50,624 nucleotides of DNA from Bacillota bacterium (GTDB taxonomy: Bacteria > Bacillota > DTU030): the NCBI GenBank assembly GCA_012523785.1, contig JAAYTH010000047.1, forward strand, positions 1-50,624. The letters are read 5' to 3'. The notes below the pieces were generated by a model. That model did no database searches. It worked only from the letters and a program-made list of their open reading frames with translations, and was not told the DNA's origin. The translations under genes and the position numbers were made by a program. This document shows positions 5,390 through 36,226 of this stretch, piece by piece (within the stretch, counting starts at the first letter, position 1; every line of letters begins with the position of its first letter).

Positions 5390-5406
5390 TTTAGGGAGGA
5401 TAATCA

Positions 5407-9933: not shown

Positions 9934-10200
9934 TTGGGCTATGAAGAACAACTAGATCAACTTAAAAGGGGCCTCCAACAGGCTCTGCGCCTACGGGCCG
10001 ATGCCGAGACAAAACACAGCTTTTATTTGGAACAACGGGAAAGGATTTTACAAAAGATCAAAGAATTAGGGGTGGAGCCGGAGGAGCTGGACAAGGAAAT
10101 TAGCCGTTTGCAAAGGGAAATGGACCGGCTGTTAAAGGAGGCCGAAAAACTTATTCCTTGGGATTTACTTAAACAGCAGGAAGGTCAGGGGCGAGGGTGA
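9934..10200 (+). CDS. Rad50/SbcC-like ATPase, piece 2 of 3: 88-aa coiled-coil protein
   Basis: TTG start directly after the TAA of piece 1, in the same reading frame. GGGGAGGG lies 7 nt upstream. The sequence is entirely coiled-coil-like (EEQLDQLKRGLQQALRLRADAETKHSFYLEQRERILQKIKELG...). Confidence 0.5.
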   Translation: MGYEEQLDQLKRGLQQALRLRADAETKHSFYLEQRERILQKIKELGVEPEELDKEISRLQREMDRLLKEAEKLIPWDLLKQQEGQGRG

Positions 10201-10207
10201 TAAATAA

Positions 10208-10867: not shown

Positions 10868-10988
10868 TGGGAAGGGTTTTCTCGGTGGGCATGTTCTAAG
10901 GTGTGTATAAAAGAAGGATGTCATATAATAGCTAATGGCTGGGGTGTGTTATTGTTATTGTAGTTAAATTCATTTAGGGGTTGATCCT

Positions 10989-13901: not shown

Positions 13902-16341
13902 ATATCTAAAGGGGTTAAATCCTGAACAGCGGCAGGCCGTTACCTATCCTTTGGATAAACCCCTTAAGGTGTTGGCCGGGGCCGGAACCGGCAAGACCAG
14001 GGTACTGACCACCAGATATATACATATCCTGGCCCAGGGCGGCAACTGGGCCCCGGAAAACATTTTAGCCTTGACCTTTACCAATAAGGCGGCGGCGGAA
14101 ATGAAAGAACGCATTGTTGATTCTTGCCGGAGGATGAGGATTGCCACTGGCCCTCTGTTTTTGCAAGAGAGCTGGATAGGCACCTTTCATTCCTGCTGCC
14201 ATCGATTTCTGCGGGAACATGCCCTAGGGGCAGGATTAGACCCGGAATTTACTGTTTATGATGAGGCCCGTTCTTGGCTCCTCTATCGGCGGGTGGTGGA
14301 TGAATTTTTATCCGCTAAGGGGGCAGTGCCGGAGGGCTTTGTCCTTACTGATCTCAATTTCTACGTAAAGGATGTCTATTTCCTCATCAATCGCCTGAAG
14401 GACAGCCTTATCTATCCAGATGATTACCAGCAGATGGTCAGAGAAGAAAATAATAAATATTATGACCGCTGGGGGGAGCTCTTAATGGGTTTAGGTGATA
14501 TGGAGCTACACCCGGCAACCCGGAAGGTTTTAATGGAGAGGGGCGAGGAGGCCCGGGAACAATCGGCTTGGGAGGGGGATCTCATCCAGGTCACCAATTT
14601 TTTGTTTTCTGCCTATCAAGAGGCACTGGCAGCAGCAAGGGCCCTTGATTTTGCTGATCTCATCTATTATACCTACCGGCTTTTACGGGACAATGTGGCC
14701 CTGGGAGAGGAGTGCCGACACCGATTTGCCTATATTTTGGTGGATGAATTTCAGGATACCAATAGGGCCCAATTTGCCCTTTTGCGCCTTTTGGCCCGGG
14801 ATGAAAAAATGTCTAATGTAACGGTAGTGGGGGATGAAAGACAGGCCATATATGGTTGGCGGAATGCCCGGATAGAAAATGTGAGGGAATTTGCGGCCCG
14901 GGAGTGGGGGGGTGAAGAGATAAGATTGCACACAAATTACCGTTCCTATCAGCAAATACTAGATCTAGCCCAGTTTAGTATGGAAAAATCCCCCCATTTG
15001 CTGCAGGATAATTCGCCCCTCCGGGCCCAGCGGGGAGTTGCCCCTGGGCCCCGCATCAGTTTGGCACTGGCCCAGGATAGGGGAGAGGAAGGAAACATAA
15101 TTGCCGCCGCCATTGGTGAACTCCTAAAGCAGGGGATGAGGGCTGAAGATATAGTAATTCTTCTGCGCAGCCCCCGCTGGGCCCAACCCTACGAGGGTGC
15201 CCTGCGCCTAAGGGGTATCCCCTTTCAGACCGTCGGCGGTGTGGGTTTTTATGATCGGGAAGAAATTAAAGATCTTTTGGCTTACCTGCGGGTTATTACC
15301 AACCCCTACGACGACCTGGCCTTGGTACGGGCCCTCATGGCCCCGCCTTGTTTTTGCAGTGATGCCGATTTGGCACAGATATGCCAATTGCAAAAACGGC
15401 GGGAGGGGATTGGAGGGGAAGAGGTCCATTTATATGATATCCTGCGCGGAGTGTTAGTGGAACCTGAAATTCCCCCGGCGGTAAGAAAGAAGGTGGAAGT
15501 CTTTTTGGCGCTGGGGGAAGGACTTATTGAATTACAAGATAAGATGTCACTGACAGATTTTTTGAACCAGATTCTACAAAGGACCGCCTATCTTAACTAT
15601 GTTTATGCTAACCCACCAGATGAAGTTCGCCGTCGAATTGGCAATATCAAGAAACTCTTTTCCCTCGCTTCCCAAATAGATCCGGGAACAGCTGCTGAAT
15701 TTATCCGTTATGCGGAATTCTTTTCGGAAAATGATCTACGGGAAGGCGAAGAAGCGGCCGGGTATAGGGATGCTGTCACCATAATGAGTGTCCACCAGGC
15801 CAAGGGTTTGGAGTTTCCCTATGTTTTTTTACCCAATCTCACGGATACTAATTTCCCCGTCCGGGCCCCTTACCCCAATTTAGATTACAGTGAAGATCTG
15901 GGATTAATTATAAAAAAGGACCGGTTGGGAAGGGATATGGCAAAATTTGCCCCCCATAATTATGATAAAGAAAATTATCGAGATATTTATAACCACTTTG
16001 GGATTATTAGTTACAAAGATAGACAGCGGGAAGAACAGCTACAGGAGGAGCGCCGTCTTTTTTATGTGGCCCTGACCAGGGCCCAAGAGGGGCTGTATTT
16101 GACTTGTCCTAAACCTTTCCCAAAAAGATCCCGGGGGCCCCATTTCTTCCGGGAAATCTGGGAAGGATATGAGCCGGCGGAAAAAATTGTGGGGCAGAAG
16201 GTTCAAGGTCCGGCGGGAGATGAAGACCCTTTGCTAGACTGGAAGCCGGGAGAGCTGCAGCAATACCATGAGGTTTTGTCAAAGTGGCTAGAGCTAGGAA
16301 AAAGGATTTTTACCGCTTCTGACAAATTTTTGCCAAAATAG
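13894..16341 (+). CDS. UvrD/PcrA/AddA-type superfamily 1 helicase with no recognisable C-terminal nuclease domain
   Basis: 815 aa. Motifs: LNPEQRQAV, Walker A AGAGTGKTRVLT, TFTNKAAAEM, ILVDEFQDTN, VGDERQAIYGWRNA, TNYRS, VTIMSVHQAKGLEFPYVF, LFYVALTRAQEGLYL. The protein ends about 90 aa after the last helicase motif. Confidence 0.9.
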   Translation: MNRYLKGLNPEQRQAVTYPLDKPLKVLAGAGTGKTRVLTTRYIHILAQGGNWAPENILALTFTNKAAAEMKERIVDSCRRMRIATGPLFLQESWIGTFHSCCHRFLREHALGAGLDPEFTVYDEARSWLLYRRVVDEFLSAKGAVPEGFVLTDLNFYVKDVYFLINRLKDSLIYPDDYQQMVREENNKYYDRWGELLMGLGDMELHPATRKVLMERGEEAREQSAWEGDLIQVTNFLFSAYQEALAAARALDFADLIYYTYRLLRDNVALGEECRHRFAYILVDEFQDTNRAQFALLRLLARDEKMSNVTVVGDERQAIYGWRNARIENVREFAAREWGGEEIRLHTNYRSYQQILDLAQFSMEKSPHLLQDNSPLRAQRGVAPGPRISLALAQDRGEEGNIIAAAIGELLKQGMRAEDIVILLRSPRWAQPYEGALRLRGIPFQTVGGVGFYDREEIKDLLAYLRVITNPYDDLALVRALMAPPCFCSDADLAQICQLQKRREGIGGEEVHLYDILRGVLVEPEIPPAVRKKVEVFLALGEGLIELQDKMSLTDFLNQILQRTAYLNYVYANPPDEVRRRIGNIKKLFSLASQIDPGTAAEFIRYAEFFSENDLREGEEAAGYRDAVTIMSVHQAKGLEFPYVFLPNLTDTNFPVRAPYPNLDYSEDLGLIIKKDRLGRDMAKFAPHNYDKENYRDIYNHFGIISYKDRQREEQLQEERRLFYVALTRAQEGLYLTCPKPFPKRSRGPHFFREIWEGYEPAEKIVGQKVQGPAGDEDPLLDWKPGELQQYHEVLSKWLELGKRIFTASDKFLPK

Positions 16342-16384
16342 TATTTGTATGGTATTATTATGGTGATGTTAAAATAAAAACAAA

Positions 16385-16490
16385 TAATCTCCGAGCCTGA
16401 TTAGCCTAAAGGTGTAAAGCCCAGGGTACCAGGCCGCTAGGGTACACCGGAAACGGTGCTGCCTCCCGGAATTATGGAAAGGAGATGGCG
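16385..16490 (+). promoter_or_regulatory. Candidate molybdenum/tungsten cofactor (Moco RNA motif) riboswitch aptamer
   Basis: As I recall them, the conserved Moco-motif blocks occur in the expected order. They are CTCCGAGCC (16389-16397), CCTAAAGG (16405-16412), GCCTCCC (16461-16467) and GGAAAGGAG (16476-16484). CTCC and GGAG can close a P1 stem. There is a 5-bp hairpin capped by a GAAA tetraloop (CACCG-GAAA-CGGTG, 16445-16458). Tetraloop-receptor-like halves are present: CCTAA(A)G and TATGG (16473-16477). No covariance-model search was run. Confidence 0.55.
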
Positions 16491-16504
16491 ATATAGAAGT
16501 TTTT

Positions 16505-16535
16505 AAAACGTCTTCTCCAAGACGTTTTTTCTTTT
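16505..16535 (+). terminator. Intrinsic terminator forming the expression platform of the leader
   Basis: AAAACGTCTT (16505-16514), loop CTCC, AAGACGTTTT (16519-16528), then TTCTTTT. An alternative pairing exists between GGAGATGGCG (16481-16490, including the 3' half of the proposed P1) and CGTCTTCTCC (16509-18). That pairing has 8 Watson-Crick pairs plus 1 G-U out of 10 and would act as an antiterminator. Confidence 0.75.
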
Positions 16536-16620
16536 GTCTGTCTATTTTTCCTTGCCAGCCCTCTGTCCCTCGCCTTCACCCGATGGAAGAATAATTATCA
16601 CTAGTTTGGGGTGTTTTGTT

Positions 16621-18132
16621 GTGGTTCACATTAATAAAAGTGTTATTTCCCGCTGCCTACTTGTTATTTTGGCTACCTTTATGTTTGCCAGCTTATTGGC
16701 CCTTGCCCTAACACCGCTTGTGGAGGCTGCCAGCGGTGATCTGGAAATAACCGGCCCTGGTCTTAATGGGAGAAGAATTATTATCAGCCAAGGCCAGTTG
16801 CGGGGCACAGAACCCCTATTTTTCCCGGATGGTACAATGGTTGAACAAGAGGAAGAATGGTACAGTGCTATCAATACTTGGCCCAGTAAGATCTGGTACC
16901 GGGGTCAGGGCATCAAGTTGAGGGACCTTCTCAGAGCTGCCGGCGGGGTTAATGAACAGGCTACACTTATCAAGTTTACTGCTAGGGATGGTTTAACTAT
17001 GACCTTTACCCTAGAGGAGTTAATAAATGAACCCGCCTATCGTTTCCCCAATTTTATGGATGGTGGTTTAGAGGGCCATCTTCCCGGTGATCCTTCGGGG
17101 GCAGTACAGGTGGAACCCCTCCTCGCCCATAAGAGTTTTTCCCATCATAAAAAACTAACAATTATGACGGAAGAAAATGAATTAACTGGCAGTGATGCCC
17201 CCCATCTCCTCTTTGGACAGCGGGCGATAACCCAACAAAACAATGCCCGTTTTATCAAGCAGGTAACAAAAATTGAGATACTTACAGATGAAATTGATAA
17301 ATGGGACAAGCCCAGCGTTTCTCCGGCCCCGGGGTTAGTGGCGGCCGGAACCTTGGTGAAACTTTGCGGGCCCTATGGGGATGAAGATAAGGTTCACTAT
17401 ACTATAGATGGCAGCAAGCCAGGCCTAGGGAGCCCTATGTATAACCTGGTTGCCAGCCGCTGGTGGTCCTCCCGCCGCGATTTAGATGACATCAACCGCC
17501 CCATAGAAATTACTGAGGACACAACTATTAAGGCTGTGACAATTGGGCCTGGTAAAGCAGATAGCGATATTGTCAGCTTTATCTTTAGGGTAAAAGAAGA
17601 CGAGGAAGAGACAGGCAAAACCCTTACTGATATTAATGGTCATTGGGCCCAAAATAATATCATTAAACTTGTTAACCGCGGTGCCATCAGTGGCTATATC
17701 GATGGCACCTTTAGGCCAGATCATATTATTACCAGGGCCGAGTATGTTACCGTGCTTTTGAAGGCCTTTCAAATGGAGGGAGAGGGGGAAAGGGTGTTTG
17801 CCGATACAAAATCCCATTGGGCCAAGGGATATATCGCTGCAGCGGTAGCTAAGGGTATTGACGACGGATATGACAGCACTACCTTTGGCCCCGATGATGT
17901 TATTACCCGGGAACAGATGGCAGTAATGGTGGCCCGGGCGGCCAATTTGGCAGCCCCTGGGAATAGGATTTCCTTTGCCGACGGAGATAAGATTTCCCCC
18001 GGGGCTGTGGACAGGGTGGCGGCGGCGGTGGAAAAAGGCATAATTAGGGGATACCCTGACAACACCTTCCGCCCCCAAGGCAGTGCCAGCAGGGCTGAGG
18101 CCGTTACCATTATTACCCGGGCACTGCCCTAG
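16621..18132 (+). CDS. Secreted surface protein, paralog A: SUOX-fold molybdopterin-binding-like domain, then a chitobiase/hexosaminidase-C-like (Fn3-associated) domain, then 3 SLH domains
   Basis: The ORF-track start at 16534 lies inside the terminator. I therefore prefer the in-frame GTG at 16621, which has GGGGTG 7 nt upstream. Signal peptide: CLLVILATFMFASLLALALTPLVEAASG. Motifs: LEITGPG...YSAINTWPSKIWYRGQGIKLRDLL...FTARDG...LLFGQRAITQQ...KIEILT. Also VHYTIDGSKPGLGSPMYN. The C-terminal repeats are SLH-type: HWAQNNIIKLVNRGAISGYIDGTFRPDHIITRAEY, SHWAKGYIAAAVAKGI, ISPGAVDRVAAAVEKGIIRGYPDNTFRPQGSASRAEA. Confidence 0.85.
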   Translation: MVHINKSVISRCLLVILATFMFASLLALALTPLVEAASGDLEITGPGLNGRRIIISQGQLRGTEPLFFPDGTMVEQEEEWYSAINTWPSKIWYRGQGIKLRDLLRAAGGVNEQATLIKFTARDGLTMTFTLEELINEPAYRFPNFMDGGLEGHLPGDPSGAVQVEPLLAHKSFSHHKKLTIMTEENELTGSDAPHLLFGQRAITQQNNARFIKQVTKIEILTDEIDKWDKPSVSPAPGLVAAGTLVKLCGPYGDEDKVHYTIDGSKPGLGSPMYNLVASRWWSSRRDLDDINRPIEITEDTTIKAVTIGPGKADSDIVSFIFRVKEDEEETGKTLTDINGHWAQNNIIKLVNRGAISGYIDGTFRPDHIITRAEYVTVLLKAFQMEGEGERVFADTKSHWAKGYIAAAVAKGIDDGYDSTTFGPDDVITREQMAVMVARAANLAAPGNRISFADGDKISPGAVDRVAAAVEKGIIRGYPDNTFRPQGSASRAEAVTIITRALP

Positions 18133-18241
18133 CAAACAATAGTAACTGCTTAGTGGCACCCACTGATGTCATTCTGGGCAAAGCGAAGGATCAGGGCCAT
18201 GGTTATTAATCAGACAGCAGAAGGGCCAGGGGAAGGAAGTT

Positions 18242-19846
18242 ATGATGGGTTTTACTAGAATATTGGCAGCAAATCATAAAATATCAGCGTCGGCCCTATT
18301 CCTACTGCTGTTCTTTTTTTTGCTTCCATCTGCCTCCGCCAGTGCCGAACCTGGTGGGGCCTTGGAAATCATTGGCCCTGGGGTGGAAACCCCCGGGACA
18401 TTTAAGCTCTCTGAACTGGAGGCCAGGGAGCAATATGAACATATTTACAGTGCTGTAAATACCTACCCCACCAAGCAGTGGTATGTAGCCCGGGGTGTTT
18501 TATTAAAAGATTTGCTTGGGTCCCTTGGCCTTAGGGATGAGGCAACCCTAATCCGTTTTTATTCCCAGGATGGCTATGATGTTGTTTTTACGGTACAAGA
18601 ATTGCTGGTGGACAAGCGCTACTATTTCCCTAAATTAAAGGACAATCATCCCAGTGATGGAAGTGTTCCCGGGTCTTCAGAAGATGCGGAAGAGGTAGAA
18701 ACAATTTTAGCCCTGGTCAGTGCTGAGGGAAGTGATAACCCGGAACATATGAATACAAAGGATACCCTACAGCTTATCCTGGGACAGCGGGCAGTGACGG
18801 AACAAGTAAGCACCTTGTTTGTGAAAAACATAAACAAGATTGAGGTACTAACCAAAGAGCTGGAACAATGGGATCGGCCGCGGATGAATGTGCCGGAGGG
18901 TTTTGTGCTGCCTCCGGGGGCAAAATTAATTTTACAGAACAAGAACTCTGATACCGACAAAATTTATTATACTATTGATGGCAGTACCCCCACTGTGGAT
19001 AGTCCCATGTTTAACTGGAGTGCCAGCCGCTGGTGGCCTCTGCGGGGAGATCTGGATAAGATCAATGCCCCCCTTAAAATTACAGATGACATCTTAAAAG
19101 ACCATGATAAACAAACCCTCACCATTAAGGCCCGGACCATAGGGCCGGGAAAGAAAGATAGCGATATAGTCACCTTTACCTTCTATATAGATCCTGACGC
19201 AGTTGATCCCACATTGGAGACAGGGGGGCCTACTACTGGGGTTTTTCTTGATCGGCAGGAGATTGAACTCCCGGTTGGAGGCACCTTCCAATTGGAGGCT
19301 AGGGTGGAACCTTTTAATGCGGACAACAAACATTTGATCTGGCGTTCCAATGATACCACGGTGGCCGTGGTAGATACCCAAGGTTTGGTGACAATGGTGG
19401 GTACAGGCAGTGCTGTTATCACCGTTGAAACTGTGGAAGGGGGCCACAGGGCTACTTGTCTTATCAATGGTACAGGTGGGGAAGAGGAGGATAAGATTGA
19501 AGTCGAGGAATACCTTGTGGAAGGGGATAATAATGTAAAAGCAGATCCCGTCGAAGGCGGGGGGGTAGATCCTGCTGAAACTGCCCCGTCCCCTGTGTCC
19601 GATGAAAGGTTATCCACAGATAGGTGGCAATACCTGATAAGCAGAGATGAATTATCTAGCCCAACAATAGATGGAACTCCGGGGAAAGAACAAGCCCCTT
19701 TAGGGCAACAAATATTTGCGATGTCGGTGGTAAATCCCACCCCCTTACAGGCGGATAACCATGAATTATCCACCACCTTGATTTTTCTATTTTTACTTCT
19801 TTCCGGTGCTGGTATAAAATACAGCGAATATGTGAAGGAGCTATAG
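18242..19846 (+). CDS. Secreted surface protein, paralog B: same N-terminal two-domain core, then a Big_2-like Ig domain, a low-complexity linker and a C-terminal transmembrane anchor
   Basis: Signal peptide: ALFLLLFFFLLPSASASAEPGG. Core motifs: YSAVNTYPTKQWYVARGVLLKDLL, YSQDGY, LILGQRAVTEQ, KIEVLT, IYYTIDGSTPTVDSPMFN. Big_2-like segment: LPVGGTFQLEARVEPFNADNKHLIWRSNDTTVAVVDTQGLVTMVGTGSAVITV. C-terminal hydrophobic tail: TTLIFLFLLLSGAGI followed by KYSEYVKEL. Confidence 0.85.
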   Translation: MMGFTRILAANHKISASALFLLLFFFLLPSASASAEPGGALEIIGPGVETPGTFKLSELEAREQYEHIYSAVNTYPTKQWYVARGVLLKDLLGSLGLRDEATLIRFYSQDGYDVVFTVQELLVDKRYYFPKLKDNHPSDGSVPGSSEDAEEVETILALVSAEGSDNPEHMNTKDTLQLILGQRAVTEQVSTLFVKNINKIEVLTKELEQWDRPRMNVPEGFVLPPGAKLILQNKNSDTDKIYYTIDGSTPTVDSPMFNWSASRWWPLRGDLDKINAPLKITDDILKDHDKQTLTIKARTIGPGKKDSDIVTFTFYIDPDAVDPTLETGGPTTGVFLDRQEIELPVGGTFQLEARVEPFNADNKHLIWRSNDTTVAVVDTQGLVTMVGTGSAVITVETVEGGHRATCLINGTGGEEEDKIEVEEYLVEGDNNVKADPVEGGGVDPAETAPSPVSDERLSTDRWQYLISRDELSSPTIDGTPGKEQAPLGQQIFAMSVVNPTPLQADNHELSTTLIFLFLLLSGAGIKYSEYVKEL

Positions 19847-19851
19847 TCAAA

Positions 19852-20505
19852 ATGAATGGGCCCATATTGATCTACCTCAAGGATATGCTTCACGGCATTG
19901 CTAGCGGCCTATTAATACCAACCATAATCATCCTTATCTGCTTTTTGGCCTTGTCAGTGGTGGAATTAGGCGGTTTGCTAGTAGAAATCATAATGGAAAG
20001 ACGTCGGGAAAAAACAAATGTACCCCAATTAATAAGTGCCCTGCCGGGAAAAGGTGCTGTGGAGATAATGGCTAAAATAGAACAAAGCTCCCTTTTTCTT
20101 CGGCAGAAGGAAGTTATTGCCGAGATAATCCGCCATAGGGAATTGCCATCTGCTTCTTTGCGCGCCCTGGCTCGACGCCTTCTATCGGCAGAGGAAAGCC
20201 ATTTTACCAGCATAACTGATAGAACTGATCTAGTGGCCCGCTTGGCCCCTATGTTGGGCCTAATGGGCACCCTTATACCCCTAGGACCGGGCATAATTGC
20301 CCTGGGTCAAGGTGATACCCAAACCCTGGCCAGTTCCCTGCTCATTGCCTTTGATACCACTGTAGCAGGCCTGGCCGCCGCTGGCGTTGCCTACGGCATA
20401 TCCCGGCTGCGGAAAAGATGGTATGAGGAGCAGATCAATACATTGGCAGCACTGTTGGAAAGTTTGCTGGAGGTGTTTGAAAATGGACGGGGGCTTGCGG
20501 AATAG
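19852..20505 (+). CDS. MotA/TolQ/ExbB-family proton-channel protein
   Basis: 217 aa. There is an N-terminal TM segment (LLIPTIIILICFLALSVVELGGLLV). The C-terminal two-TM channel core is LAPMLGLMGTLIPLGPGIIALGQGD...LLIAFDTTVAGLAAAGVAYGISRL, typical of MotA_ExbB. The gap to the preceding gene is 5 nt. Confidence 0.85.
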   Translation: MNGPILIYLKDMLHGIASGLLIPTIIILICFLALSVVELGGLLVEIIMERRREKTNVPQLISALPGKGAVEIMAKIEQSSLFLRQKEVIAEIIRHRELPSASLRALARRLLSAEESHFTSITDRTDLVARLAPMLGLMGTLIPLGPGIIALGQGDTQTLASSLLIAFDTTVAGLAAAGVAYGISRLRKRWYEEQINTLAALLESLLEVFENGRGLAE

Positions 20506-20815
20506 AAGGTACAGCGGCCTTGGAAGGAAGGAAGACATCAATCCCCTGGAAGGGGTCATCAATGTTGCCGATATCATGCTGGTTTTTGCCTGTGGTTTGA
20601 TGTTGGCCTTGGCTGTCTATTGGAATATTGATCTGGGCCCGGTAGGGGAACGAATTGATCTCCACAAGGGGCAGGAAATGACAGAGGACCCAAAAATACG
20701 GGACGATTTGGTGGAAAGTCCGGACCAGGGCGGCAGGTATGAACGGGTTGGTACTGTATACAAGGACCCGGCCACGGGACAGCTTTTTATGCTCACTGAA
20801 GGTGAGGGAAAATAG
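20483..20815 (+). CDS. Small single-pass membrane protein, DUF2149-like / ExbD-TolR-analogous partner of the preceding channel protein
   Basis: I chose the ATG at 20483, which has GGAGGTG 7 nt upstream and overlaps the upstream gene by 23 nt. The sequence MDGGLRNRRYSGLGRKEDINPLEGVINVADIMLVFACGLMLALAVYW resembles the ExbD/TolR N-terminal pattern (short charged tail, INxxPhxDVxhVhhhhh TM helix). A soluble tail follows (YERVGTVYKDPATGQLFML). The family assignment is from memory. Confidence 0.6.
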   Translation: MDGGLRNRRYSGLGRKEDINPLEGVINVADIMLVFACGLMLALAVYWNIDLGPVGERIDLHKGQEMTEDPKIRDDLVESPDQGGRYERVGTVYKDPATGQLFMLTEGEGK

Positions 20816-20894
20816 TTTTTCCCCGCCGCTAAAGTACATATTCGGATGGTGTTGTGTAAACCCAACAATATAAAAAAGGGGGAGAACAGGGCCC

Positions 20895-22274
20895 ATGGTA
20901 TCAAATAAAAAAGACACTACCCTAGTTGCAAGGCCGGCCCCGGACCCGGGGAAAAAACTTTATTTATTTGGTCCCTTGTTTTTTCTTGTTGCCGGGGTTC
21001 TATTGTTTTCCTTGGTACTGGATCTATCCTTGGGGGCGATGGTTTTTGCTAGCCCCGATTCCCTGATAATTGCCGGGGAAGGGGTGAAGGAGGAAGTGAT
21101 CTTTACCCGGGAAGAATTAGAGGAAATGGAACGGGAGCAATGTCTTTACAGTTCTATAAATACTTGGCCCACCAAGAAGTGGTATGTGGGAGAAGGAATA
21201 AAGCTTATGGATTTGCTCCACCAGGCGGGCCTCAAAAAAGAGGCCACCCTCTTGAGATTCACCGCAGCCGATGGTTTTACCGTGGATTTAACTTATAAGG
21301 AGTTGTTTGAAGACCAGCGTTACTGTTTTCCCAATTTTAAGAAAGGGGCCGCCAGTGGGGAGGGACATGTACCCGGCAGTGCATCTAATGCTGTGGCAGT
21401 GGAACCCATCATTGCCCTTTATGCCGTGGAGGGAAGCAGTGACCCCGAATATATGAGTACCCTATATTCACCCCAGCTGATGTTAGGGCAACGGGCAGTG
21501 ACAGAGCAGACGGGAAACTTATTTGTCAAGTACTTACATAAAATTGAGGTTCTTACCGATGACCTAGAACGGTGGGATGTGCCCCGGGGAAACCCTCCGG
21601 CGGGCCAGGTACCCAAGGGCAGCATGGTAGCCTTGAGCAATGATAACTGTGATGATGACAAGATTTATTACACCCTGGACGGCAGCACCCCCACCATTAA
21701 CAGTCCCATGTACAACTGGATTGCCAGCCGCTGGTGGTCAACCCGGGCGGAAGAATTAGGCACCATCAACCATCCCTTGGGGCCTCTAGTGGAGGACACC
21801 ACCATTAAGGCTGTTACCATTGGTCCCGGCAAGTTGGACAGCGAAGTGGCTGTTTTCCACTATCGGCTGGAAGGTGGGGAAGGGGATAAGGGAACCACCA
21901 TCCTTTTGACCATTGGTGAATATGAAGTTGATGTGGATGGTGAAATTATTTACCTAGATGCTGTCCCCTTTATCAAGCCCGGTGTCGACCGCACCCTGGT
22001 ACCGATACGTTTTATTGCCAAAGCCTTTGGTGTTGATATTGCTTGGAATCCCGAGGCCAGGCTAGTTATCATCAGCCTGGATGGTAAGGAGGTGGTCCTG
22101 GAGATCAACTCTAGCCAAGTGTATGTCAACGGGCTAGCCCGGACCATTGAATGTCCAGCTGAATTGCATCCTCCGGGCCGCACCTTTGTACCCCTGCGTT
22201 TTATCAGCGATATTTTGGGGGCCAAAAGTGTAGATTATGATGGGGAAAGCAGGCAGATAAGTATTATTTGGTAA
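20895..22274 (+). CDS. Surface protein, paralog C: N-terminal TM/signal anchor, the same two-domain core, and a C-terminal copper-amine-oxidase-N-like (stalk) domain
   Basis: TM segment: LYLFGPLFFLVAGVLLFSLVLDLSLGAMVFA. Core motifs: YSSINTWPTKKWYVGEGIKLMDLL, FTAADGF, LMLGQRAVTEQ, KIEVLT, IYYTLDGSTPTINSPMYN. The C-terminal segment is DRTLVPIRFIAKAFGVDIAWNPEARLVIISLDGKEVVLEINS...GRTFVPLRFISDILGAKSVDYD, which is the Cu_amine_oxidN1-type repeat pattern. Confidence 0.85.
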   Translation: MVSNKKDTTLVARPAPDPGKKLYLFGPLFFLVAGVLLFSLVLDLSLGAMVFASPDSLIIAGEGVKEEVIFTREELEEMEREQCLYSSINTWPTKKWYVGEGIKLMDLLHQAGLKKEATLLRFTAADGFTVDLTYKELFEDQRYCFPNFKKGAASGEGHVPGSASNAVAVEPIIALYAVEGSSDPEYMSTLYSPQLMLGQRAVTEQTGNLFVKYLHKIEVLTDDLERWDVPRGNPPAGQVPKGSMVALSNDNCDDDKIYYTLDGSTPTINSPMYNWIASRWWSTRAEELGTINHPLGPLVEDTTIKAVTIGPGKLDSEVAVFHYRLEGGEGDKGTTILLTIGEYEVDVDGEIIYLDAVPFIKPGVDRTLVPIRFIAKAFGVDIAWNPEARLVIISLDGKEVVLEINSSQVYVNGLARTIECPAELHPPGRTFVPLRFISDILGAKSVDYDGESRQISIIW

Positions 22275-22376
22275 GGAAGCGGTTTGTTTTACAACCGTGT
22301 CTATTTTTTTGCTGGGGAGGTGATGTATCCGTTTTGCTTATGTCACCCGGGTAAAATATTATCAGGAGGTAGTAAT

Positions 22377-25300
22377 ATGCCAAAAAAGGTGAATAGGATA
22401 TCTGTACAGAAGGTTTTATCACTTATCTTGGGGTTACTTTTGCTTTTGAGTGGGGCTGGACAATTGACGGTACTTCCCGCCCGGGCCGCCGGAATGGAGG
22501 TACTTTATGAAGGACGGATTGACTTGCCAGCGGGCGAAACCTTTGCTGTAACAGCCTATAACTCAGGGGTATCTTATACGGTGGACATGGATACTCCCTT
22601 GGGGGCCCTCCAAATAGCGGGAGACCTGGCAGGCTTTGAGTATGATGTTACCGACAAGAACATTGATGCCTCGGGTGCCTTATTGCTGGACAATGTGGGC
22701 CAATATGAGCGGAAACCGGGCTATTGGTATGCTTATGTCAATGGTGCCTACAAGGATGGTTTTAACAATCCCGCCGGGGCCCTGAACCTTATTAAGCTCA
22801 CTAATGGCGATGAAGTTGAATTCTATTATGCTGCCGATGTAAAGGGCAAAGAAGAAGATTTAGCTGCTGTTCAAGGGGCTGCCATAGCAGCGGTCATAGC
22901 CCACATAGGAACAGATGGGGCAGCGGTTACGGATACAGGGGAAAAGACAGATGTGGATGTCACCCAAGATGACTGGACCCTGCAGCTTTCAGGTGCCCGG
23001 GAAGAAACGGTTAGCAGGAGCTACTTTGAAGAGGGATTAGCCTGTCATTCAAGCCATCAGGTGTTTTGGACCGATGAGGATGGCAATGAATGGGGTGGGG
23101 TACCCCTTTGGCTCTTGGTGGCCATGGTGGATGACGATCCGGATGAAGGATCGGCCCATTACAACTTTAATGATGAACTGGCAAATGAAGGCTATACCAT
23201 CGACGTTATTGCCGGTGATGGTTGGAAGGCTACCCTCGCTAGTGCAGACATCGCCCGGGATGATGGCTATATTATTGCCAACACCTTAAATGGCAAACCC
23301 CTGCCCAAGGAAACGCCGGGGGGTAAAGACTGCTGGCCCCTCCATTTAAAGGGAGAAAAGATCTTTGGTGGCCAACAGGTGGGTAACATTGTCCGCATTG
23401 AACTGACCGGCCTGCCAAAACCAGTAGAAGGATGGACATTAGAGCTGGTGGGTAAGGTTGGAGATTCCATCACCCAGGAAGAATTTGAAAAGGGGCAAGT
23501 CTGTATCGGGACCAAGGACCACTATGCCGAGTGGACCGATAATGAAGGGAAAGTTTGGTCCGGTACCCCCCTATGGATATTGGCCGGTGCTGTAGATGAT
23601 ATTGAAGAAAGCACCCATTGGACCTTTAATGATGTCGTGGCCCAGGAGGGTTATACCATACGCGTAGAGGCCGAAGACGGATTTTCCAGGACTTTTTCCA
23701 GCCAAGATGTGGCCCGCAGTGGCGACTACATTGTTGCCGATCGGGTAGATGGTAAACCTCTTTCTGCCAAACACTGGCCCCTCCGTCTTGTCGGTCCTGG
23801 TGTGACCAAAGAGGATGGTTCCCTGGGTGGGGCCGCTGTCGGCAACATTGTTAAAATTACAATTCCCGAATTGCTTACGCCGGCGGCGGAGGGGGGCTCT
23901 TGGAATCTTACCCTTACCGGTGCAATTGACTATATCATGTCCCAGGCAGAATTTGAAGAGGGCCTAGCCTGCCATAAAAAAGAATGGATAGATGCCGAGG
24001 GCCAAGTCTGGTCCGGGATGCCCCTTTGGTACTTGGCGGGTTGGGTAGATGATAAGGTACCCCACGATTTTAATGTCAATCTGGCTAATGCCGGGTATAC
24101 AATCCATGTCAAGGCGGAGGATGGCTATACCAAGGATTTTGCCAGTCAAGATGTGGCCAAGAGCAGTGACTATATACTGGCCAATGAAGTAGATGGTGAA
24201 CCCTTAACTGAATCCTGGCCCCTACGCTTGGTCGGTGACGGTGTAGCTACAGATGGTTCCTTAGGTGGTCACAGTGTAGGTGGTGTGGCGACTGTAGCCT
24301 TGACTGATTTTGAGGCAGAAACGCCTGTACCAGAAATTCGGATCATAAAATACGGCGAAGATGGCCAAACCGTTCTGGCTGAGGAGACAGTAACCTACCA
24401 GTGGATGGAGGAAAACTTGGAAGTAATTGGTGATGGAAAAACTGTTTACAGATATGAAGGAATCATTTTTGACCCCGAAGATGAATGGGGTGATAATATT
24501 GCTGTCCCGAAGGATTTCAAAATTGAGAATGCCGTAAAGGGTACCCGGGTCAAGGATTTAGTGGAACTTGTCGGAGGGATGGGGGCTGGGACCGAAATTG
24601 TTTTTGTGGCCAAGGATGGCTGGGAAACCAGGTTACCCTATTCCAGTATTTATACAGACCCAATGGTGCAGGAACGTCAGGGTGACGCCATTCTGGCATG
24701 GTATTCCGATGGCGAATATGTACCCGACTACGCTGGAATTCGCCTCTTCTTTACCCCCGGTGGGGATCATATCTACCGGCAAAAAGATATGCGGGACACC
24801 CTTCCGGAGGCTTACTGGCACTATTACGGTAAGGGCGGTACATTACTTCCCTCCTGTGCCGGTTTATCGGCAAAATGGCTTGCGGAGGTTTGGGTTTATT
24901 CTATGCCGGAAAAGGATTGGACACTGAAGTTGGATGGCAGGGAGATCGGTGGGCTGGAATATGAGGTGAGCAAAACCTATTGGGAGCAGGGTCTGACCTG
25001 TCAGTTTGGTGCCAACCATAAGTCTTCTTACACCGATGATAAAGGACGGGTGTGGGAGGGAATGTCCCTTTGGCTTTTGGCCGGATTTGTCGATGATGAG
25101 GATCAGCACTCCGACCATGCCTTTAACACTGCGCTGGCCGAGGCTGGTTACAATATCCTCCTCACTGCTGCTGACGGTCATTCTGTGACGGTCCACAGCA
25201 CCGATATCATACGAAATAAGGATTATATTGTGGCCAGTATGTTAGATGGCCGAGCTATGTCAGAAGATGATAAACACTGGCCCCTGCGTTTGGTGGGCCC

Positions 25301-25865
25301 TGCGGTAAGTGGTAAGAATTCGATTTCACAAATTGTTAAAATTGAGCTTCTCCCGGATTCCGACATTGCCGGACATTGGGCGGAAGAGAGTATTAAGAAA
25401 TTGATGGACAGGGGAGTAATAGAAGGCTATCCCGATGGCACCTTTAGGCCAGAAGAAAACATAACCCGGGCTGAGTTTGCTGCTTTACTAGTAAAAGCCT
25501 TTGGACTTGACGTCTCCGGTGAAAAGGTATTTGCTGACACAGCTGGCCATTGGGCTCAAAGTATCATCTCTACGGCTGAATACCATGACATCGTATCCGG
25601 TTATGATGAAAATACCTTTGGACCCAATGATCCGGTTACCCGGCAAGAAGTGGCAGTAATGATTGTCCAGGCGGCTCAACTAGATCCAAAGGCTAACTTA
25701 CCGGCCTTTGCCGATGCTGACAGCATTTCTCCCTGGGCTAAAGATGCCATTGCCCGGGCGACGGCAGCTGGGGTCATCAAGGGATATCCCGACGAAACCT
25801 TCCAGCCCCAAGGAAAAGCCAGCCGGGCAGAGGCGGTCACGGTTTTAGTCAATTGCTTGGGCTAG
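22377..25865 (+). CDS. 1162-aa SLH-anchored multi-module surface protein: DUF4430-like domain, then 4 similar plus 1 divergent SUOX-fold molybdopterin-binding-like modules, then 3 SLH domains
   Basis: I moved the start to the ATG at 22377, which has AGGAGG 7 nt upstream; the track start is 22284. Signal peptide: VLSLILGLLLLLSGAGQLTVLPARAAG. The DUF4430-like stretch (about 22494-22835) ends GYWYAYVNGAYKDGFNNPAGALNLIKLTNGDEVEFYYA. The repeated modules lie at about 22968-23411, 23427-23870, 23895-24308 and 24912-25352. A divergent module lies at about 24324-24902. Each module starts W(T/N)L.L.G and ends HWPLRLVGP or SWPLRLVGD ...VGNIVKI. SLH repeats run from 25362 (HWAEESIKKLMDRGVIEGYPDGTFRPEENITRAEF ...). 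Confidence 0.85.
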   Translation: MPKKVNRISVQKVLSLILGLLLLLSGAGQLTVLPARAAGMEVLYEGRIDLPAGETFAVTAYNSGVSYTVDMDTPLGALQIAGDLAGFEYDVTDKNIDASGALLLDNVGQYERKPGYWYAYVNGAYKDGFNNPAGALNLIKLTNGDEVEFYYAADVKGKEEDLAAVQGAAIAAVIAHIGTDGAAVTDTGEKTDVDVTQDDWTLQLSGAREETVSRSYFEEGLACHSSHQVFWTDEDGNEWGGVPLWLLVAMVDDDPDEGSAHYNFNDELANEGYTIDVIAGDGWKATLASADIARDDGYIIANTLNGKPLPKETPGGKDCWPLHLKGEKIFGGQQVGNIVRIELTGLPKPVEGWTLELVGKVGDSITQEEFEKGQVCIGTKDHYAEWTDNEGKVWSGTPLWILAGAVDDIEESTHWTFNDVVAQEGYTIRVEAEDGFSRTFSSQDVARSGDYIVADRVDGKPLSAKHWPLRLVGPGVTKEDGSLGGAAVGNIVKITIPELLTPAAEGGSWNLTLTGAIDYIMSQAEFEEGLACHKKEWIDAEGQVWSGMPLWYLAGWVDDKVPHDFNVNLANAGYTIHVKAEDGYTKDFASQDVAKSSDYILANEVDGEPLTESWPLRLVGDGVATDGSLGGHSVGGVATVALTDFEAETPVPEIRIIKYGEDGQTVLAEETVTYQWMEENLEVIGDGKTVYRYEGIIFDPEDEWGDNIAVPKDFKIENAVKGTRVKDLVELVGGMGAGTEIVFVAKDGWETRLPYSSIYTDPMVQERQGDAILAWYSDGEYVPDYAGIRLFFTPGGDHIYRQKDMRDTLPEAYWHYYGKGGTLLPSCAGLSAKWLAEVWVYSMPEKDWTLKLDGREIGGLEYEVSKTYWEQGLTCQFGANHKSSYTDDKGRVWEGMSLWLLAGFVDDEDQHSDHAFNTALAEAGYNILLTAADGHSVTVHSTDIIRNKDYIVASMLDGRAMSEDDKHWPLRLVGPAVSGKNSISQIVKIELLPDSDIAGHWAEESIKKLMDRGVIEGYPDGTFRPEENITRAEFAALLVKAFGLDVSGEKVFADTAGHWAQSIISTAEYHDIVSGYDENTFGPNDPVTRQEVAVMIVQAAQLDPKANLPAFADADSISPWAKDAIARATAAGVIKGYPDETFQPQGKASRAEAVTVLVNCLG

Positions 25866-26019: not shown

Positions 26020-27423
26020 ATGAAGTGCAGGGAATTTATCTTTAACATCTGCCGGGACAGGGCCGGCCCAGTGATTGTCCTGCTGGTGTATTTCTTACTG
26101 TTGACCAATCCTATTCCGGTGGCAGCAGGATGTGGGCACAATGCTGGCCGGGCTGACCATATTCTTCTTTCTTGGACTGGGGATCCCTTGACCACGCAGA
26201 CTATTTCCTGGCAGGCCGGGGCGGGAAGCGGCCAAGATTCCCTCCAATATATTGCCGCCGCCAAATATGACGGTACTTTTTCCGATGTTGGGAAAGTGAA
26301 GGGAAAGGGAAGCCCCCTTGATAAGGACTATTGGCGCTTTACAGTAACCCTAAGGGGTTTATTACCTAAAACCGAATATCTTTATAGGGTCGGCGGGGAA
26401 GGGGATTGGAGTGAACCTGCCTCTTTCACCACCGCCGCACCGGAGGATCGTTTTTCCTTTCTTTATATGGGGGATGTCCAAGAAGGTTATGAAGATTGGG
26501 GTGACATGTTGGCCCAAGTTTGGAAGGAAAATCCCCAACTCCGGTTTGTCCTTATGGGTGGCGACCTGGTGGATAAGGGAAATGATTTAAGTGAATGGCA
26601 GCAATTTTTAACTGCCGCCGGGCCCGTTTTTAGGAGCCTACCCCTACTAGCGGCGGTAGGAAACCACGATGATACAAACCTATTCCGGACCCTTTTTGCC
26701 TTACCTACCAATGGGCCCAAGGGGCATGAGGGGACTGTCTATTCCTTTGACTATGGTAATTGCCATATCACGGTATTGAATAGCAATTGCATGGGCATTC
26801 CCGGTACCCTGGGTTTTGATGACTTGGCCCATTGGCTGCGGCAGGATTTAGCCTCCAGCCGGCAGACCTGGAAGTTTGTGGTTTTTCACCATCCCCCCTA
26901 CCAGGTGGTTCAAAACTGGCGGGGAGAACACCTGCAAAAGAACTGGGTACCTTTTTTGGAGGAAGGTGGTGTGGACCTGGTCTTTAGTGGCCACCAACAT
27001 GTTTACATGCGGACAAAACCACTATGGGAAGGTTGTATTCAGCCCGAGGGGCAGGGTATTGTCTATGTAATGGGCAATTCAGGCACTAAATACTATGGGC
27101 CCGGCCCTGATCAGGACTATATTACTCAGCAGGTGGCCTGGGTAAGCAATTACCAGTTGATTGAGATTGACGGCAACACTTTATATATGACGGCCAAGGC
27201 TGCTTCGGGTGAGGTAATAGATACCTACAGGATAGTAAAGGGGAGCGGGGTCGTTGACAATCGCAATGATGAAATTTGCCCCGCCGGTTTTAGGTATTAT
27301 TTCATCCCCTGGTGGCTATTACACCCTGTAAAGACTCCTATTGACTATGCCGCCGTCCTTACACAGGCTAATGCGATTATAAGCGCTAACTTGGAGGGTT
27401 TCCCCAGCTATTTTACAAATTGA
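26020..27423 (+). CDS. Secreted or membrane-anchored purple-acid-phosphatase-like metallophosphoesterase
   Basis: 467 aa. RBS AAAGGAG. N-terminal hydrophobic segment GPVIVLLVYFLLLTNPIPVAAGCG. A PAP N-terminal Fn3-like part follows (ILLSWTGDPLTTQTISWQ...YLYRVGG...WSEPASFTTA). The metallophosphatase motifs are FLYMGDVQ, MGGDLVDKG, AVGNHD, VVFHHPPY, SGHQHVY. Confidence 0.8.
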   Translation: MKCREFIFNICRDRAGPVIVLLVYFLLLTNPIPVAAGCGHNAGRADHILLSWTGDPLTTQTISWQAGAGSGQDSLQYIAAAKYDGTFSDVGKVKGKGSPLDKDYWRFTVTLRGLLPKTEYLYRVGGEGDWSEPASFTTAAPEDRFSFLYMGDVQEGYEDWGDMLAQVWKENPQLRFVLMGGDLVDKGNDLSEWQQFLTAAGPVFRSLPLLAAVGNHDDTNLFRTLFALPTNGPKGHEGTVYSFDYGNCHITVLNSNCMGIPGTLGFDDLAHWLRQDLASSRQTWKFVVFHHPPYQVVQNWRGEHLQKNWVPFLEEGGVDLVFSGHQHVYMRTKPLWEGCIQPEGQGIVYVMGNSGTKYYGPGPDQDYITQQVAWVSNYQLIEIDGNTLYMTAKAASGEVIDTYRIVKGSGVVDNRNDEICPAGFRYYFIPWWLLHPVKTPIDYAAVLTQANAIISANLEGFPSYFTN

Positions 27424-27494
27424 TCTTTCGATCAGATGGGCTCCTCCCTATATGTTTTTAAATGTGTTATTTCCCAAGTATGGGGGTTAAGGAT

Positions 27495-28046
27495 ATGCAA
27501 GCACTTATTTTTCGCCAGAAAACATTTGCCTACCTACTTCTCCTTATATTTTGCTTTTGGGGTAACGGCTGTGGCCCAGTAGAAGATCATCCCCCGGGGG
27601 CCGTTATTATCGAAGGAGTTGGTGTAGAAAGTACAGTATCCTTCACTTTGGAAGAATTAAAGGCCTTGGAAGATGGCCTGGTGGAGGCTGATTACTATGC
27701 CCTTAATTCCTATGGCACCGAGGGGCGTTTCCACTTTAAGGGTATTTGGGTATGGCATATAATAGAGAAAATGGTAAATTTGCAGGATGATGCGGCGGTA
27801 GTCAACTTCATTGGCCAGGATGATTACCAGGTGGAGTTTACCCTGGAAGATGTAAAAAAGGAAGATTATATAGATGAAGGGGACCCGGCAGTAAAACACA
27901 AGATGATCATAGCATGGGAAGAAGATGGAGTAGAGTATGATCCTAGCCGAGGCAATCCCTTCCAGCTGGTGGTTGGCCAGCGGGAACCCGGGGATGTGAA
28001 TAGGCCCTACTGGGTGCGAAATCTCAAAATTATTCGTATAGATTAG
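27495..28046 (+). CDS. Small lipoprotein consisting of a single SUOX-fold molybdopterin-binding-like domain
   Basis: The start is uncertain (27462, 27480 or 27495). The signal and lipobox region is AYLLLLIFCFWGNGCGP. Domain pattern: VIIEGVGVESTVSFTLEELKAL...FKGIWVWHIIEKM...VNFIGQDDYQVEF...MIIAWEEDGVEY...NPFQLVVGQREPGDVNRPYWVRNLKIIRI. Confidence 0.75.
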   Translation: MQALIFRQKTFAYLLLLIFCFWGNGCGPVEDHPPGAVIIEGVGVESTVSFTLEELKALEDGLVEADYYALNSYGTEGRFHFKGIWVWHIIEKMVNLQDDAAVVNFIGQDDYQVEFTLEDVKKEDYIDEGDPAVKHKMIIAWEEDGVEYDPSRGNPFQLVVGQREPGDVNRPYWVRNLKIIRID

Positions 28047-28244
28047 TAGTTACTAGCCCGTGGTGTTTATAAAATCATCGCTTACAAAGTATCTAAACCA
28101 TACTATAAACCGACCTAATTATCGTTATGCAAAGATCCTTTGCTTCCTTCAATCTGGTACTAAGGGTTATACCCAGTAGTGGCAATTAGTACTACAGGGC
28201 TTGAAATCTATAGAAGATGGCTATCTAGGCTGGGGGGTAATATT

Positions 28245-36167: not shown

Positions 36168-36226
36168 TACAGGGAAAAGTTGATATGCTACATATAGTAA
36201 ATATAAACGCTAGGAGGGTATATGTA

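Follow-up and report, generated by a model that had tools for sequence, protein, structure and literature searches.

What does a proton-channel gene pair of the MotA/ExbB kind do when it lies among genes for surface proteins? The question is raised by a 50,624-nucleotide (nt) stretch of a Bacillota genome (GTDB lineage DTU030; assembly GCA_012523785.1, contig JAAYTH010000047.1), hereafter the window, in which a MotA/ExbB/TolQ-family gene overlaps a DUF2149 gene. ExbB/TolQ/MotA-type motors are known as the power source for transport at the outer membrane, for upkeep of the envelope, for flagella and gliding, and for some defense systems; we know of no report in which such a motor helps a single-membrane bacterium to capture nutrients across its wall. 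An original prediction, made from the DNA letters alone, had suggested that the pair couples proton-motive force to ligand release or transfer from anchored receptors. We now see about an even chance that the pair, as a proton-conducting stator, forms part of a three-part energizing module that spans the envelope and belongs to a nutrient-uptake operon; proton-motive force would there drive TonB-like work on an anchored surface protein, paralog B, for uptake related to the tungsten (W) or molybdenum (Mo) cofactor (Tuco and Moco, respectively). The parts of this putative module are the following.

18242 to 19846, + strand: paralog B, with a signal peptide, a PruR/SUOX-like domain, Fn3_assoc, Big_2, an acidic/Pro-rich linker, and a C-terminal membrane anchor (Pfam)
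19589 to 19846, + strand: C-terminal module of paralog B, reading RWQYL ... QIFAMS ... transmembrane (TM) helix (TLIFLFLLLSGAG) ... KYSEYVKEL tail
19852 to 20505, + strand: MotA/ExbB/TolQ-family channel subunit of 217 amino acids (aa), PF01618, with an ExbB-like three-TM layout
20483 to 20815, + strand: DUF2149 small subunit of 110 aa with an ATG start, PF09919

The family assignments of the original prediction proved sound. The 217-aa open reading frame (ORF) matches PF01618 (MotA_ExbB) over residues 97-198 (E-value 2.8e-10; 40.5 bits against a cutoff of 22.9), and the 110-aa ORF matches PF09919 (DUF2149) with an E-value of 2.5e-8 (34.6 bits, cutoff 27.1). A further match of the MotA-like protein, to the NCBIfam PID-CTERM sorting domain (21 bits, below cutoff), was rejected as a hydrophobic-helix artefact. 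As had been stated, the two genes overlap by 23 nt and begin 5 nt after the end of paralog B (19846); the gap between the DUF2149 gene and paralog C (start at 20895) is 79 nt, not 80 nt. Shine-Dalgarno-like AAGGAG and GGAGG sequences are found 5' of the MotA-like and DUF2149 genes. The prediction had also reckoned with a small ORF that is untranslated or has no homologs. We detected 371 homologs of it at an E-value of ≤0.001, the best 120 of the 371 being 60-86% identical and 89-116 aa long, and its N terminus (M-D/N-G-G-L-R) is conserved from residue 1. Comparison with four relatives gave 118, 71, and 233 differences at first, second, and third codon positions, respectively, i.e., a third-codon bias, and RNA contigs cover the region (see below). 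Thus, the small DUF2149 ORF is a real gene, and both genes of the pair are under purifying selection. The window subfamily is tight, with 3 of the 485 DUF2149 cluster representatives found scoring an E-value of ≤1e-30 against its profile.

Upon alignment with E. coli ExbB, TolQ, and MotA (sequences from NC_000913.3), the MotA-like protein was found to keep the three-helix ExbB/TolQ layout. Three residues (P133, G136, and T170) are invariant in this alignment; P133 equals MotA P173, the Pro of TM2, and T170 in TM3 equals ExbB T181, TolQ T178, and MotA T209, while T139 aligns with ExbB T148. The DUF2149 protein comprises a basic N-terminal tail, one TM helix (INPLEGVINVADIMLVFACGLMLALAV, residues 18-44 of the small ORF), and ~60 extracytoplasmic residues that end in the family-wide motif G90-T-V-Y93-x-D95-P-x-T98-G99 (GTVYxDPxTGxLF). 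Within the helix, D30 is the sole invariant column of the joint alignment (equal to ExbD D25, TolR D23, and MotB D32, the Asp through which those proteins relay protons), and both N27 and D30 are invariant in 27 close relatives and in 60 family-wide DUF2149 representatives that are 27-64% identical to the window protein. The earlier description of the small subunit as ExbD/TolR-like is therefore borne out for the single TM helix with its conserved Asp, but not beyond it: PF02472 (ExbD/TolR) gave no match in the small subunit, for which a Pfam scan at an E-value of ≤0.01 returned only PF09919, and the protein has neither an ExbD/TolR-type nor an OmpA-like C-terminal domain, the alignment stopping where the ExbD/TolR domains start. 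Judged by sequence, the small subunit is not a member of the ExbD family. Likewise, searches of PDB sequences with the MotA-like protein and with the DUF2149 profile found no relative and did not reach the ExbB, ExbD, TolQ, or TolR chains.

The third partner emerged from the genes beside the pair, where the constant part is the last ~200 residues of paralog B, i.e., Big_2, the acidic/Pro-rich linker, and the C-terminal module. Across 71 non-redundant homologs, the consensus of this module is QYL, ~25 variable residues, QVFEMS, ~25 residues, a TM helix ending in SGAG, and KRYxEYxKE directly before the stop. According to the gene calls of loci L004, L085, and L092, the paralog-B-like gene ends 4 nt into the MotA-like gene, and in locus L027, which is without an upstream gene of paralog B type, the module sits on the gene directly after DUF2149. 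In L092, where the DUF2149 protein is 48% identical to that of the window, the Big_2 protein 5' of the pair ends in RWQVFEMMS, a TM helix, and a basic tail; this pair is chromosomal (3.9 Mb) and adjoins genes for a FecCD/Peripla_BP_2 importer and for a surface protein of 2802 aa. Since the module is constant beside the pair, even in the distant L092, the conserved unit consists of three genes, coding for a C-terminally anchored exported protein, the channel subunit, and the DUF2149 protein. Its conserved C-terminal membrane anchor makes paralog B a likely TonB analog. Hence, the statement that the pair has no TonB-like partner holds by homology, but probably not by function. At another locus, whose DUF2149 is named for Gordonibacter sp., the pair occurs with a giant surface protein and a Peripla_BP_2 protein; the DUF2149 family of the two Peripla_BP_2 loci is named for Gordonibacter/Ellagibacter. 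Such neighbors (Peripla_BP_2 at two loci, FecCD at one), together with the HmuU/HmuV heme operon considered below, support the link of such pairs to metal or cofactor genes that the original prediction had mentioned, with methanogens as its putative example.

To place the unit among relatives, one genome per species was scanned, yielding at least 563 contigs with a DUF2149 relative. The best 80 of these contigs and one further locus make up the 81 loci described here (flanks of up to 10 kb). By record title, the best 80 are all Bacillota, many metagenome-assembled genomes (MAGs) included, and the carriers named are Pelotomaculum, Syntrophomonas, Desulfoscipio, Sporotomaculum, Dethiobacter, Thermovorax, Desulfovirgula, and Petroclostridium. 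The MotA-like gene adjoins DUF2149 in 80 of 81 loci. A C terminus of paralog B type ends directly 5' of the MotA-like gene in 66 of the 71 loci with enough upstream sequence, and a paralog-A/C-type gene lies directly 3' of the pair in 48 of 66. Frequent neighbors among the 81 loci are genes for a big protein with surface-layer homology (SLH) domains (48), a phosphatase (38), and energy-coupling factor (ECF) transporters (28); in Petroclostridium sp. X23, the MotA-like and DUF2149 genes are followed by those for ECF S, A, A', and T and then by a paralog-B-like gene. Coupling of proton-motive force to the anchored receptors, as originally suggested, fits this strict synteny across 81 genomes; the coupling itself is something we infer. 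One DUF2149 sequence is labeled 'Parabacteroides sp.' (L094, JAQWBH010000361.1), on a contig of 4.8 kb that also has Big_2, SLH, and Oxidored_molyb genes; this is probably a Firmicute contig binned into the wrong MAG.

The named relatives belong to the class Clostridia, outside the Firmicute lineages known to be diderm, and spore germination genes adjoin the Petroclostridium locus; our view of the hosts as monoderm rests on this taxonomy, on those genes, and on general knowledge of the diderm Firmicute lineages. It bears directly on the idea that the pair is a conventional ExbBD, TolQR, or MotAB paralog working for a TonB-dependent receptor, a Tol-Pal system, or a flagellum elsewhere in a diderm host, with its position being incidental. 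The PF01618 match and the conserved Asp would agree with such a role, as would the Bacteroidota pair that shares an operon with the TonB-dependent receptor HmuR. We find it hardly credible, however, given that the same non-Ton neighbors recur in 81 Bacillota genomes, whose named members are Clostridia and include spore formers, and that the small subunit is without PF02472 or an OmpA-like domain, neither pair protein having a sequence relative in PDB. Moreover, in agreement with the original prediction, family scans of the large ORFs of the window gave no match to TonB, TonB-dependent receptor, Tol-Pal, or flagellar families, and the annotated related loci contain no TonB, TonB-dependent transporter (TBDT), Tol, or flagellar gene either.

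Comparison with the Ton and Tol systems reveals both likeness and difference. The channel subunits share a Pfam family and the Pro and Thr of TM2 and TM3, respectively, the essential Asp lies in the only TM helix of the small subunit, a third, membrane-anchored extended protein is encoded beside the pair, and the task is uptake of a scarce nutrient (for the window, proposed). In contrast, the window small subunit lacks the ExbD/TolR periplasmic domain (~80-90 residues) and has only ~60 residues after the helix; paralog B, the proposed partner, is anchored C-terminally instead of N-terminally, has no TonB_C, and carries a ligand-binding domain; and the system has no outer membrane or TonB box receptor, its targets being, if the proposal is right, SLH- or wall-bound proteins. 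Among relatives of the pair, only HmuU and HmuV bear names; they are encoded in the heme-acquisition operon hmuYRSTUV of Bacteroidota (Porphyromonas, Prevotella, and Bacteroides), which is strongly induced by starvation for its nutrient (iron/heme limitation). There, too, a MotA/TolQ/ExbB protein is followed by a DUF2149 protein in an operon for acquisition of a metal-containing cofactor, and one paper assumes that HmuU/HmuV power the TonB-dependent HmuR. However, Hmu systems have diderm hosts, HmuR, a hemophore, a CobN-like dechelatase, and iron/heme induction, whereas the window system belongs to Bacillota and has anchored PruR-like receptors, an ECF importer, and a Moco/Tuco riboswitch. For Hmu-type and archaeal CobN-linked loci, it has been proposed that the pair energizes or scaffolds a chelatase or dechelatase for the cofactor metal, with no force transduction to surface proteins. 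Kinship with HmuU/V, which are co-operonic with the CobN-like dechelatase HmuS, argues for the same role here, but neither the window nor the annotated related loci yielded a CobN, HmuY, or TBDT family, and the constant neighbor of the pair is a C-terminally anchored surface protein, so that we rate this role as very improbable. The pair belongs to PF01618 and PF09919 and lies outside the ExbD/TolR family and the Ton, Tol, flagellar, and Hmu systems; we view it as a motor of the known MotA/ExbB type, putatively for nutrient acquisition, in a new cellular setting with new partners.

Which nutrient might be involved is indicated by the control region of the operon, which spans ~15 kb, all on the + strand, and is opened by a Moco/Tuco riboswitch followed by a terminator.

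16330 to 16358, + strand: sigma-70-like promoter, TTGCCA-17-TATTAT with an extended TG (10 of 12 consensus matches)
16377 to 16500, + strand: Moco/Tuco riboswitch aptamer without a P3 stem (RF01055; 64.9 bits against a gathering score of 36)
16505 to 16536, + strand: intrinsic terminator with a 10-bp stem and a U tract, the predicted expression platform of an OFF switch

A terminator scan of the window detected no further strong terminator in the rest of the ~15-kb operon after 16505-16536. In the alignment of the aptamer to RF01055, the P3 stem is deleted, and according to Regulski et al. (PMC2408646), Moco riboswitches without P3 track tungsten-cofactor metabolism almost perfectly; we propose that the window aptamer is of the Tuco type. 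An antiterminator alternative, in which GGAGAUGGCG pairs with CGUCUUCUCC (the 3' strand of P1 and the 5' arm of the hairpin), has a predicted energy of -14.3 kcal/mol versus -9.2 kcal/mol for P1. The terminator and this alternative pairing with P1 give the standard layout of a ligand-dependent transcriptional OFF switch (predicted), although direct ligand binding by a Moco/Tuco RNA, that of E. coli included, has never been demonstrated (PMC2408646). Being off at high cofactor, a switch of this sign fits acquisition.

Near-identical sequence is present in anaerobic-digester and biogas metagenomes, and in two biogas metatranscriptomes, RNA contigs cover the operon. One of these (17445-20580) runs from the end of paralog A through paralog B and the MotA-like gene into the start of DUF2149. 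Word depth of the RNA contigs is 27-62 in the operon versus ~4 in the upstream addA, with the rise at the promoter region, and since contig depth is a poor measure of expression, these values are taken as evidence of transcription and co-transcription only. Over the end of DUF2149 and the start of paralog C (20603-21169), depth falls to ~3-4 and then recovers. Loose ends of RNA contigs, at 21159 and 21190, depart from the window sequence, and the dip and these ends may reflect strain variation or contig breakage instead of a transcript end.

With a covariance model built from eight Rfam-confirmed aptamers, a further 58 Moco/Tuco aptamers came to light; they are spread over 33 of the 81 loci, each lies on the strand of the genes, and Rfam confirmed them. 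They lie directly 5' of paralog-A-like (21), S-component (at least 7), big-SLH (7), paralog-B (4), and phosphatase (4) genes, and, at one Dethiobacteria locus, directly 5' of the MotA-like gene. A terminator-like hairpin follows 46 of 57 aptamers, versus 35 of 300 random stretches. Tandem aptamers (two or three), which are frequent, precede PF09819 S-component or paralog-A-like genes, with a hairpin after most copies checked, and they resemble the triple arrangement reported for an S. wolfei operon (PMC2408646). Their positions are:

L051, 1210-1676
L026, 2994-3290
L033, 1416-1710
L036, 3809-4152
L042, 2882-3193
L046, 2159-2460
L050, 2186-2460

A different element occurs at L021, where a c-di-GMP-I-GGC riboswitch (331-410; RF03167, 75 bits) lies 5' of a phosphatase-like gene, with no Moco riboswitch within reach. 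A variant architecture is seen in loci L031, L032, L058, L062, L065, L072, and L084, in which the receptors are ~30% identical to paralog A and the ECF genes directly follow the pair; its regulation and cargo may differ from those of the window type.

The remaining genes of the operon code for surface proteins, an exported phosphatase, and a complete ECF set, i.e., S (PF09819), fused A-A', and T (CbiQ, PF02361).

16534 to 18132, + strand: paralog A, with a signal peptide, a PruR/SUOX-like domain, Fn3_assoc/CHB_HEX_C_1, and three SLH repeats (Pfam); the true start is probably 16621, as in the L001 gene call
20895 to 22274, + strand: paralog C, with a PruR/SUOX-like domain, Fn3_assoc, and Cu_amine_oxidN1 (wall-associated) (Pfam)
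22284 to 25865, + strand: large SLH-anchored protein of ~1160-1190 aa, with about five Oxidored_molyb-like repeats (PF00174, 1.6e-17 summed) and SLH (Pfam); the true start is probably 22377
26020 to 27423, + strand: exported purple-acid-phosphatase-like metallophosphoesterase, Pur_ac_phosph_N plus Metallophos (Pfam)
27462 to 28046, + strand: small lipoprotein of ~185 aa with a single PruR/SUOX-like domain (PF00174)
28179 to 29315, + strand: ECF S component (PF09819 at residues 37-154) fused to a C-terminal PruR/SUOX-like domain
29367 to 30905, + strand: fused ECF ATPase EcfA-EcfA', with two ABC_tran domains
30836 to 31792, + strand: ECF T component of the CbiQ family (PF02361, 4.9e-26)

The SLH and Cu_amine_oxidN1 domains confirm the wall-associated context that had been noted, and the surface proteins of the operon are anchored in three ways, to the wall (SLH, Cu_amine_oxidN1), to the membrane, and by lipid. 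Overlooked at that stage were the Moco/Tuco riboswitch, the ECF importer, the PruR/SUOX-like fold in the paralogs, and the anchor of paralog B. The fold was traced with a profile built from 36 homologs of the small lipoprotein (27462-28046), which matched paralog A (residues 42-166; 1.4e-11), paralog B (N-terminal residues 10-123; 1e-17), paralog C (residues 51-139; 3.5e-16), the extension of the S component (residues 250-345; 5.7e-8), and, weakly, five repeats of the big SLH protein. Nothing useful was obtained for the small lipoprotein by sequence search of PDB. Its AlphaFold2 (AF2) model, with a predicted local distance difference test (pLDDT) score of 88.3, gave as best Foldseek matches the PruR 'putative pterin-binding proteins' 7kom, 7kou, and 7kos (E-values 6e-7 to 9e-6), followed by the Moco domains of SorA, sulfite oxidase, nitrate reductase, and YedY, all with a probability of 1.00. 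PruR is a periplasmic, non-catalytic protein with a SUOX fold that has no Mo-binding Cys and holds its pterin between a Tyr and a Trp, with a hydrogen bond from an Asn (PMC11194511). In the 36-sequence family alignment, N82 is invariant, Y84 near-invariant, and W152 and W184 invariant; no Mo-ligand Cys is present, the sole conserved Cys being C37 of the lipobox. The N-x-Y motif (N82/Y84) recurs as N-T-W/Y in paralogs A-C, and the N82/Y84/Trp pattern recalls the PruR Asn/Tyr/Trp triad, an equivalence read from motifs alone. Like PruR (N102/Y104/W160), the receptor domain appears to be a small SUOX-like fold with N-x-Y and Trp and without the Mo Cys. In contrast to PruR, a single-domain regulator of a c-di-GMP enzyme in Proteobacteria, it is fused to SLH, Big_2, Cu_amine_oxidN1, or ECF S, at an identity of ~16% and with residue equivalence taken from motifs. 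From the motifs and the structure model, we conclude that the paralogs and the lipoprotein are probably ligand-binding receptors of pterin-binding ancestry rather than enzymes. Many large receptors of related loci also carry Shr-like_HID, the hemoglobin-interacting domain of streptococcal Shr (L004, 1-3528; L085, 4256-7570; L086, 3364-7494; L084, 4592-7213).

The same features bear on a reading in which the cluster serves to make molybdo- or tungsto-enzymes outside the cell, or a redox surface, the ECF transporter exporting cofactor and the pair aiding assembly or energizing export. Outward cofactor traffic by ECF subunits has a precedent in the flavin system of Listeria, FmnA/EetB (PMC9973259), genes with FMN_bind and Fer4_5 (NapH-like) occur in some related clusters, and the proteins bear the database label 'molybdopterin-dependent oxidoreductase'. 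However, the Mo-coordinating Cys of SUOX is missing across the whole family, and a riboswitch-terminator that is predicted to shut the operon at high cofactor has the wrong sign for a cofactor consumer. Furthermore, the signal peptides of the window paralogs are of the Sec or lipoprotein type and no twin-arginine motif was found in these sequences, so that the paralogs would exit the cell unfolded and without cofactor. On balance, we consider extracellular enzymes an improbable product of this operon.

A nearer competitor retains the motor and the uptake logic but takes the cargo to be inorganic W or Mo (tungstate, molybdate, or thio-forms), in which case the SUOX-like domains would have been repurposed as oxyanion or metal binders and the PF09819 ECF transporter would carry metal. 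Moco/Tuco riboswitches classically control molybdate/tungstate transporters (PMC2408646), and Mo/W ion transporters are the only transporters that the regulon surveys consulted place under them. Related clusters are adjoined by a MOT1-family molybdate transporter with an ABC permease and ATPase (L085, 1-2751), and by the tungsten enzyme aldehyde:ferredoxin oxidoreductase together with an ABC transporter of the binding-protein type (L090, 1089-6011). In addition, Pfam names PF09819 a cobalt-transport component, and W and Mo are poorly available in sulfidic digesters, the habitat being anaerobic digesters. Set against this, the nearest solved relatives of the receptor fold bind pterins, the N-x-Y (N82, Y84) and invariant Trp recall the PruR pterin triad (again a motif reading), ECF transporters mostly carry vitamins, oxyanions are already served by Tup/Wtp/Mod, and it is hard to see what an exported phosphatase would do with an oxyanion cargo. 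We therefore regard an inorganic cargo as unlikely, though it is the main competitor. A molybdopterin-type cargo is favored by the receptor fold, the vitamin-type ECF importer, the exported phosphatase, and the strictly anoxic habitat. The phosphatase recalls, by analogy, the extracellular trimming of phosphorylated cofactors before import, and under strict anoxia labile pterin molecules could persist. With its S, fused A-A', and T components and its riboswitch control, the window transporter resembles many vitamin ECF systems; we know of no ECF system, and met none in the literature searched, with a Moco riboswitch, with an S component fused to such an extracellular binding domain, or with a MotA/ExbB-type pair. 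Similarly, we found no literature description of the Bacillota cluster or of a transporter for the cofactor, as opposed to Mo/W ions, under a Moco riboswitch. To our knowledge, no bacterial transporter for the Mo/W cofactor or for its pterin precursors is known.

Taken as cofactor-related uptake driven through paralog B, the operon would work as follows. When tungsten or molybdenum cofactor is scarce, the riboswitch would let the operon be transcribed, and the surface proteins would bind a ligand related to the cofactor. This ligand would most likely be a molybdopterin-type pterin (Moco/Tuco, molybdopterin [MPT], a precursor, or a breakdown product) and less likely a W/Mo species. The exported phosphatase would trim the ligand, which would be handed inward from receptor to receptor, that is, from the SLH- or wall-bound receptors to the lipoprotein and the domain fused to the S component, and would then be imported by the ECF transporter using ATP. 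The complex of the MotA-like and DUF2149 proteins, probably 5:2, would use proton flow to act mechanically on the C-terminal anchor of paralog B. Spanning the wall like TonB or TolA with inverted topology, paralog B would pull on or re-set the wall-embedded receptors, such that tightly bound ligand is released and crosses the thick wall. Should this be correct, it would constitute the first TonB-like force transduction driven by proton-motive force in monoderms and the first dedicated salvage route for a Mo/W pterin cofactor or precursor, switched by a Tuco riboswitch, and the same mechanism would explain HmuU/HmuV of gut and oral Bacteroidota; we advance this wider claim tentatively, and consider it rather doubtful.

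Several observations weigh against the uptake module proposed here. Moco and Tuco are very labile outside proteins. The literature contains no experiments on any DUF2149 pair, and since DUF2149 is without the ExbD/TolR periplasmic domain that contacts TonB or TolA, coupling must follow another geometry. For the DUF2149 monomer, AF2 gave a poor model (pLDDT 55, from a 27-sequence alignment), in which helix 21-49 is the sole confident part. Within 10 kb, a riboswitch was seen in only 33 of 81 loci, no Rfam riboswitch of any class was found in the four variant loci searched (L031, L058, L065, and L084), and Moco riboswitches also precede genes for Moco-using enzymes, so that regulation alone is no proof of uptake. 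In some Pelotomaculum clusters, FMN_bind occurs among Oxidored_molyb-like genes (L085, 15113-16690; L004, 15073-15684), L085 also having a NapH-like Fer4_5 gene, which hints at redox chemistry outside the cell or electron delivery to the surface. PruR itself binds small pterins and not Moco, for which its cleft is too short (PMC11194511). S. wolfei, a genus-mate of carriers, has MPT-synthesis genes (PMC2408646), and salvage is thus not obligatory. Lastly, a review calls the role of HmuT/U/V 'unclear' and HmuV 'without homology to any known family'.

In digesters, Syntrophomonas, Pelotomaculum, Dethiobacter, and the related hosts degrade fatty and aromatic acids syntrophically, and the formate dehydrogenases and aldehyde oxidoreductases of these syntrophs depend on tungsten. 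A dedicated, highly transcribed cofactor-scavenging surface would, if real, matter for how trace metals are dosed in digesters and for how cofactors are shared within syntrophic consortia. The three-gene unit also offers a testable hypothesis of three cooperating proteins for members of the DUF2149 family, HmuU/V of Porphyromonas and Bacteroides included.

Outside the operon, a run of DNA-end-processing genes on the + strand of the window (4373 to 16341) codes for NurA, a HerA-like ATPase, an Mre11-like phosphoesterase, a Rad50/SbcC-like ATPase, AddB, and AddA, and ends directly before the riboswitch promoter. On the - strand, positions 36161-36805 code for a separate BioY (the biotin ECF S component) and positions 39328-41769 for an SLH-anchored N-acetylmuramoyl-L-alanine amidase with three SH3 domains; the BioY gene and the anchored amidase are consistent with an SLH-decorated cell wall. 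Finally, a ribonucleotide reductase large subunit at 533-3970, also on the - strand, is split by an intein with a LAGLIDADG homing-endonuclease domain.

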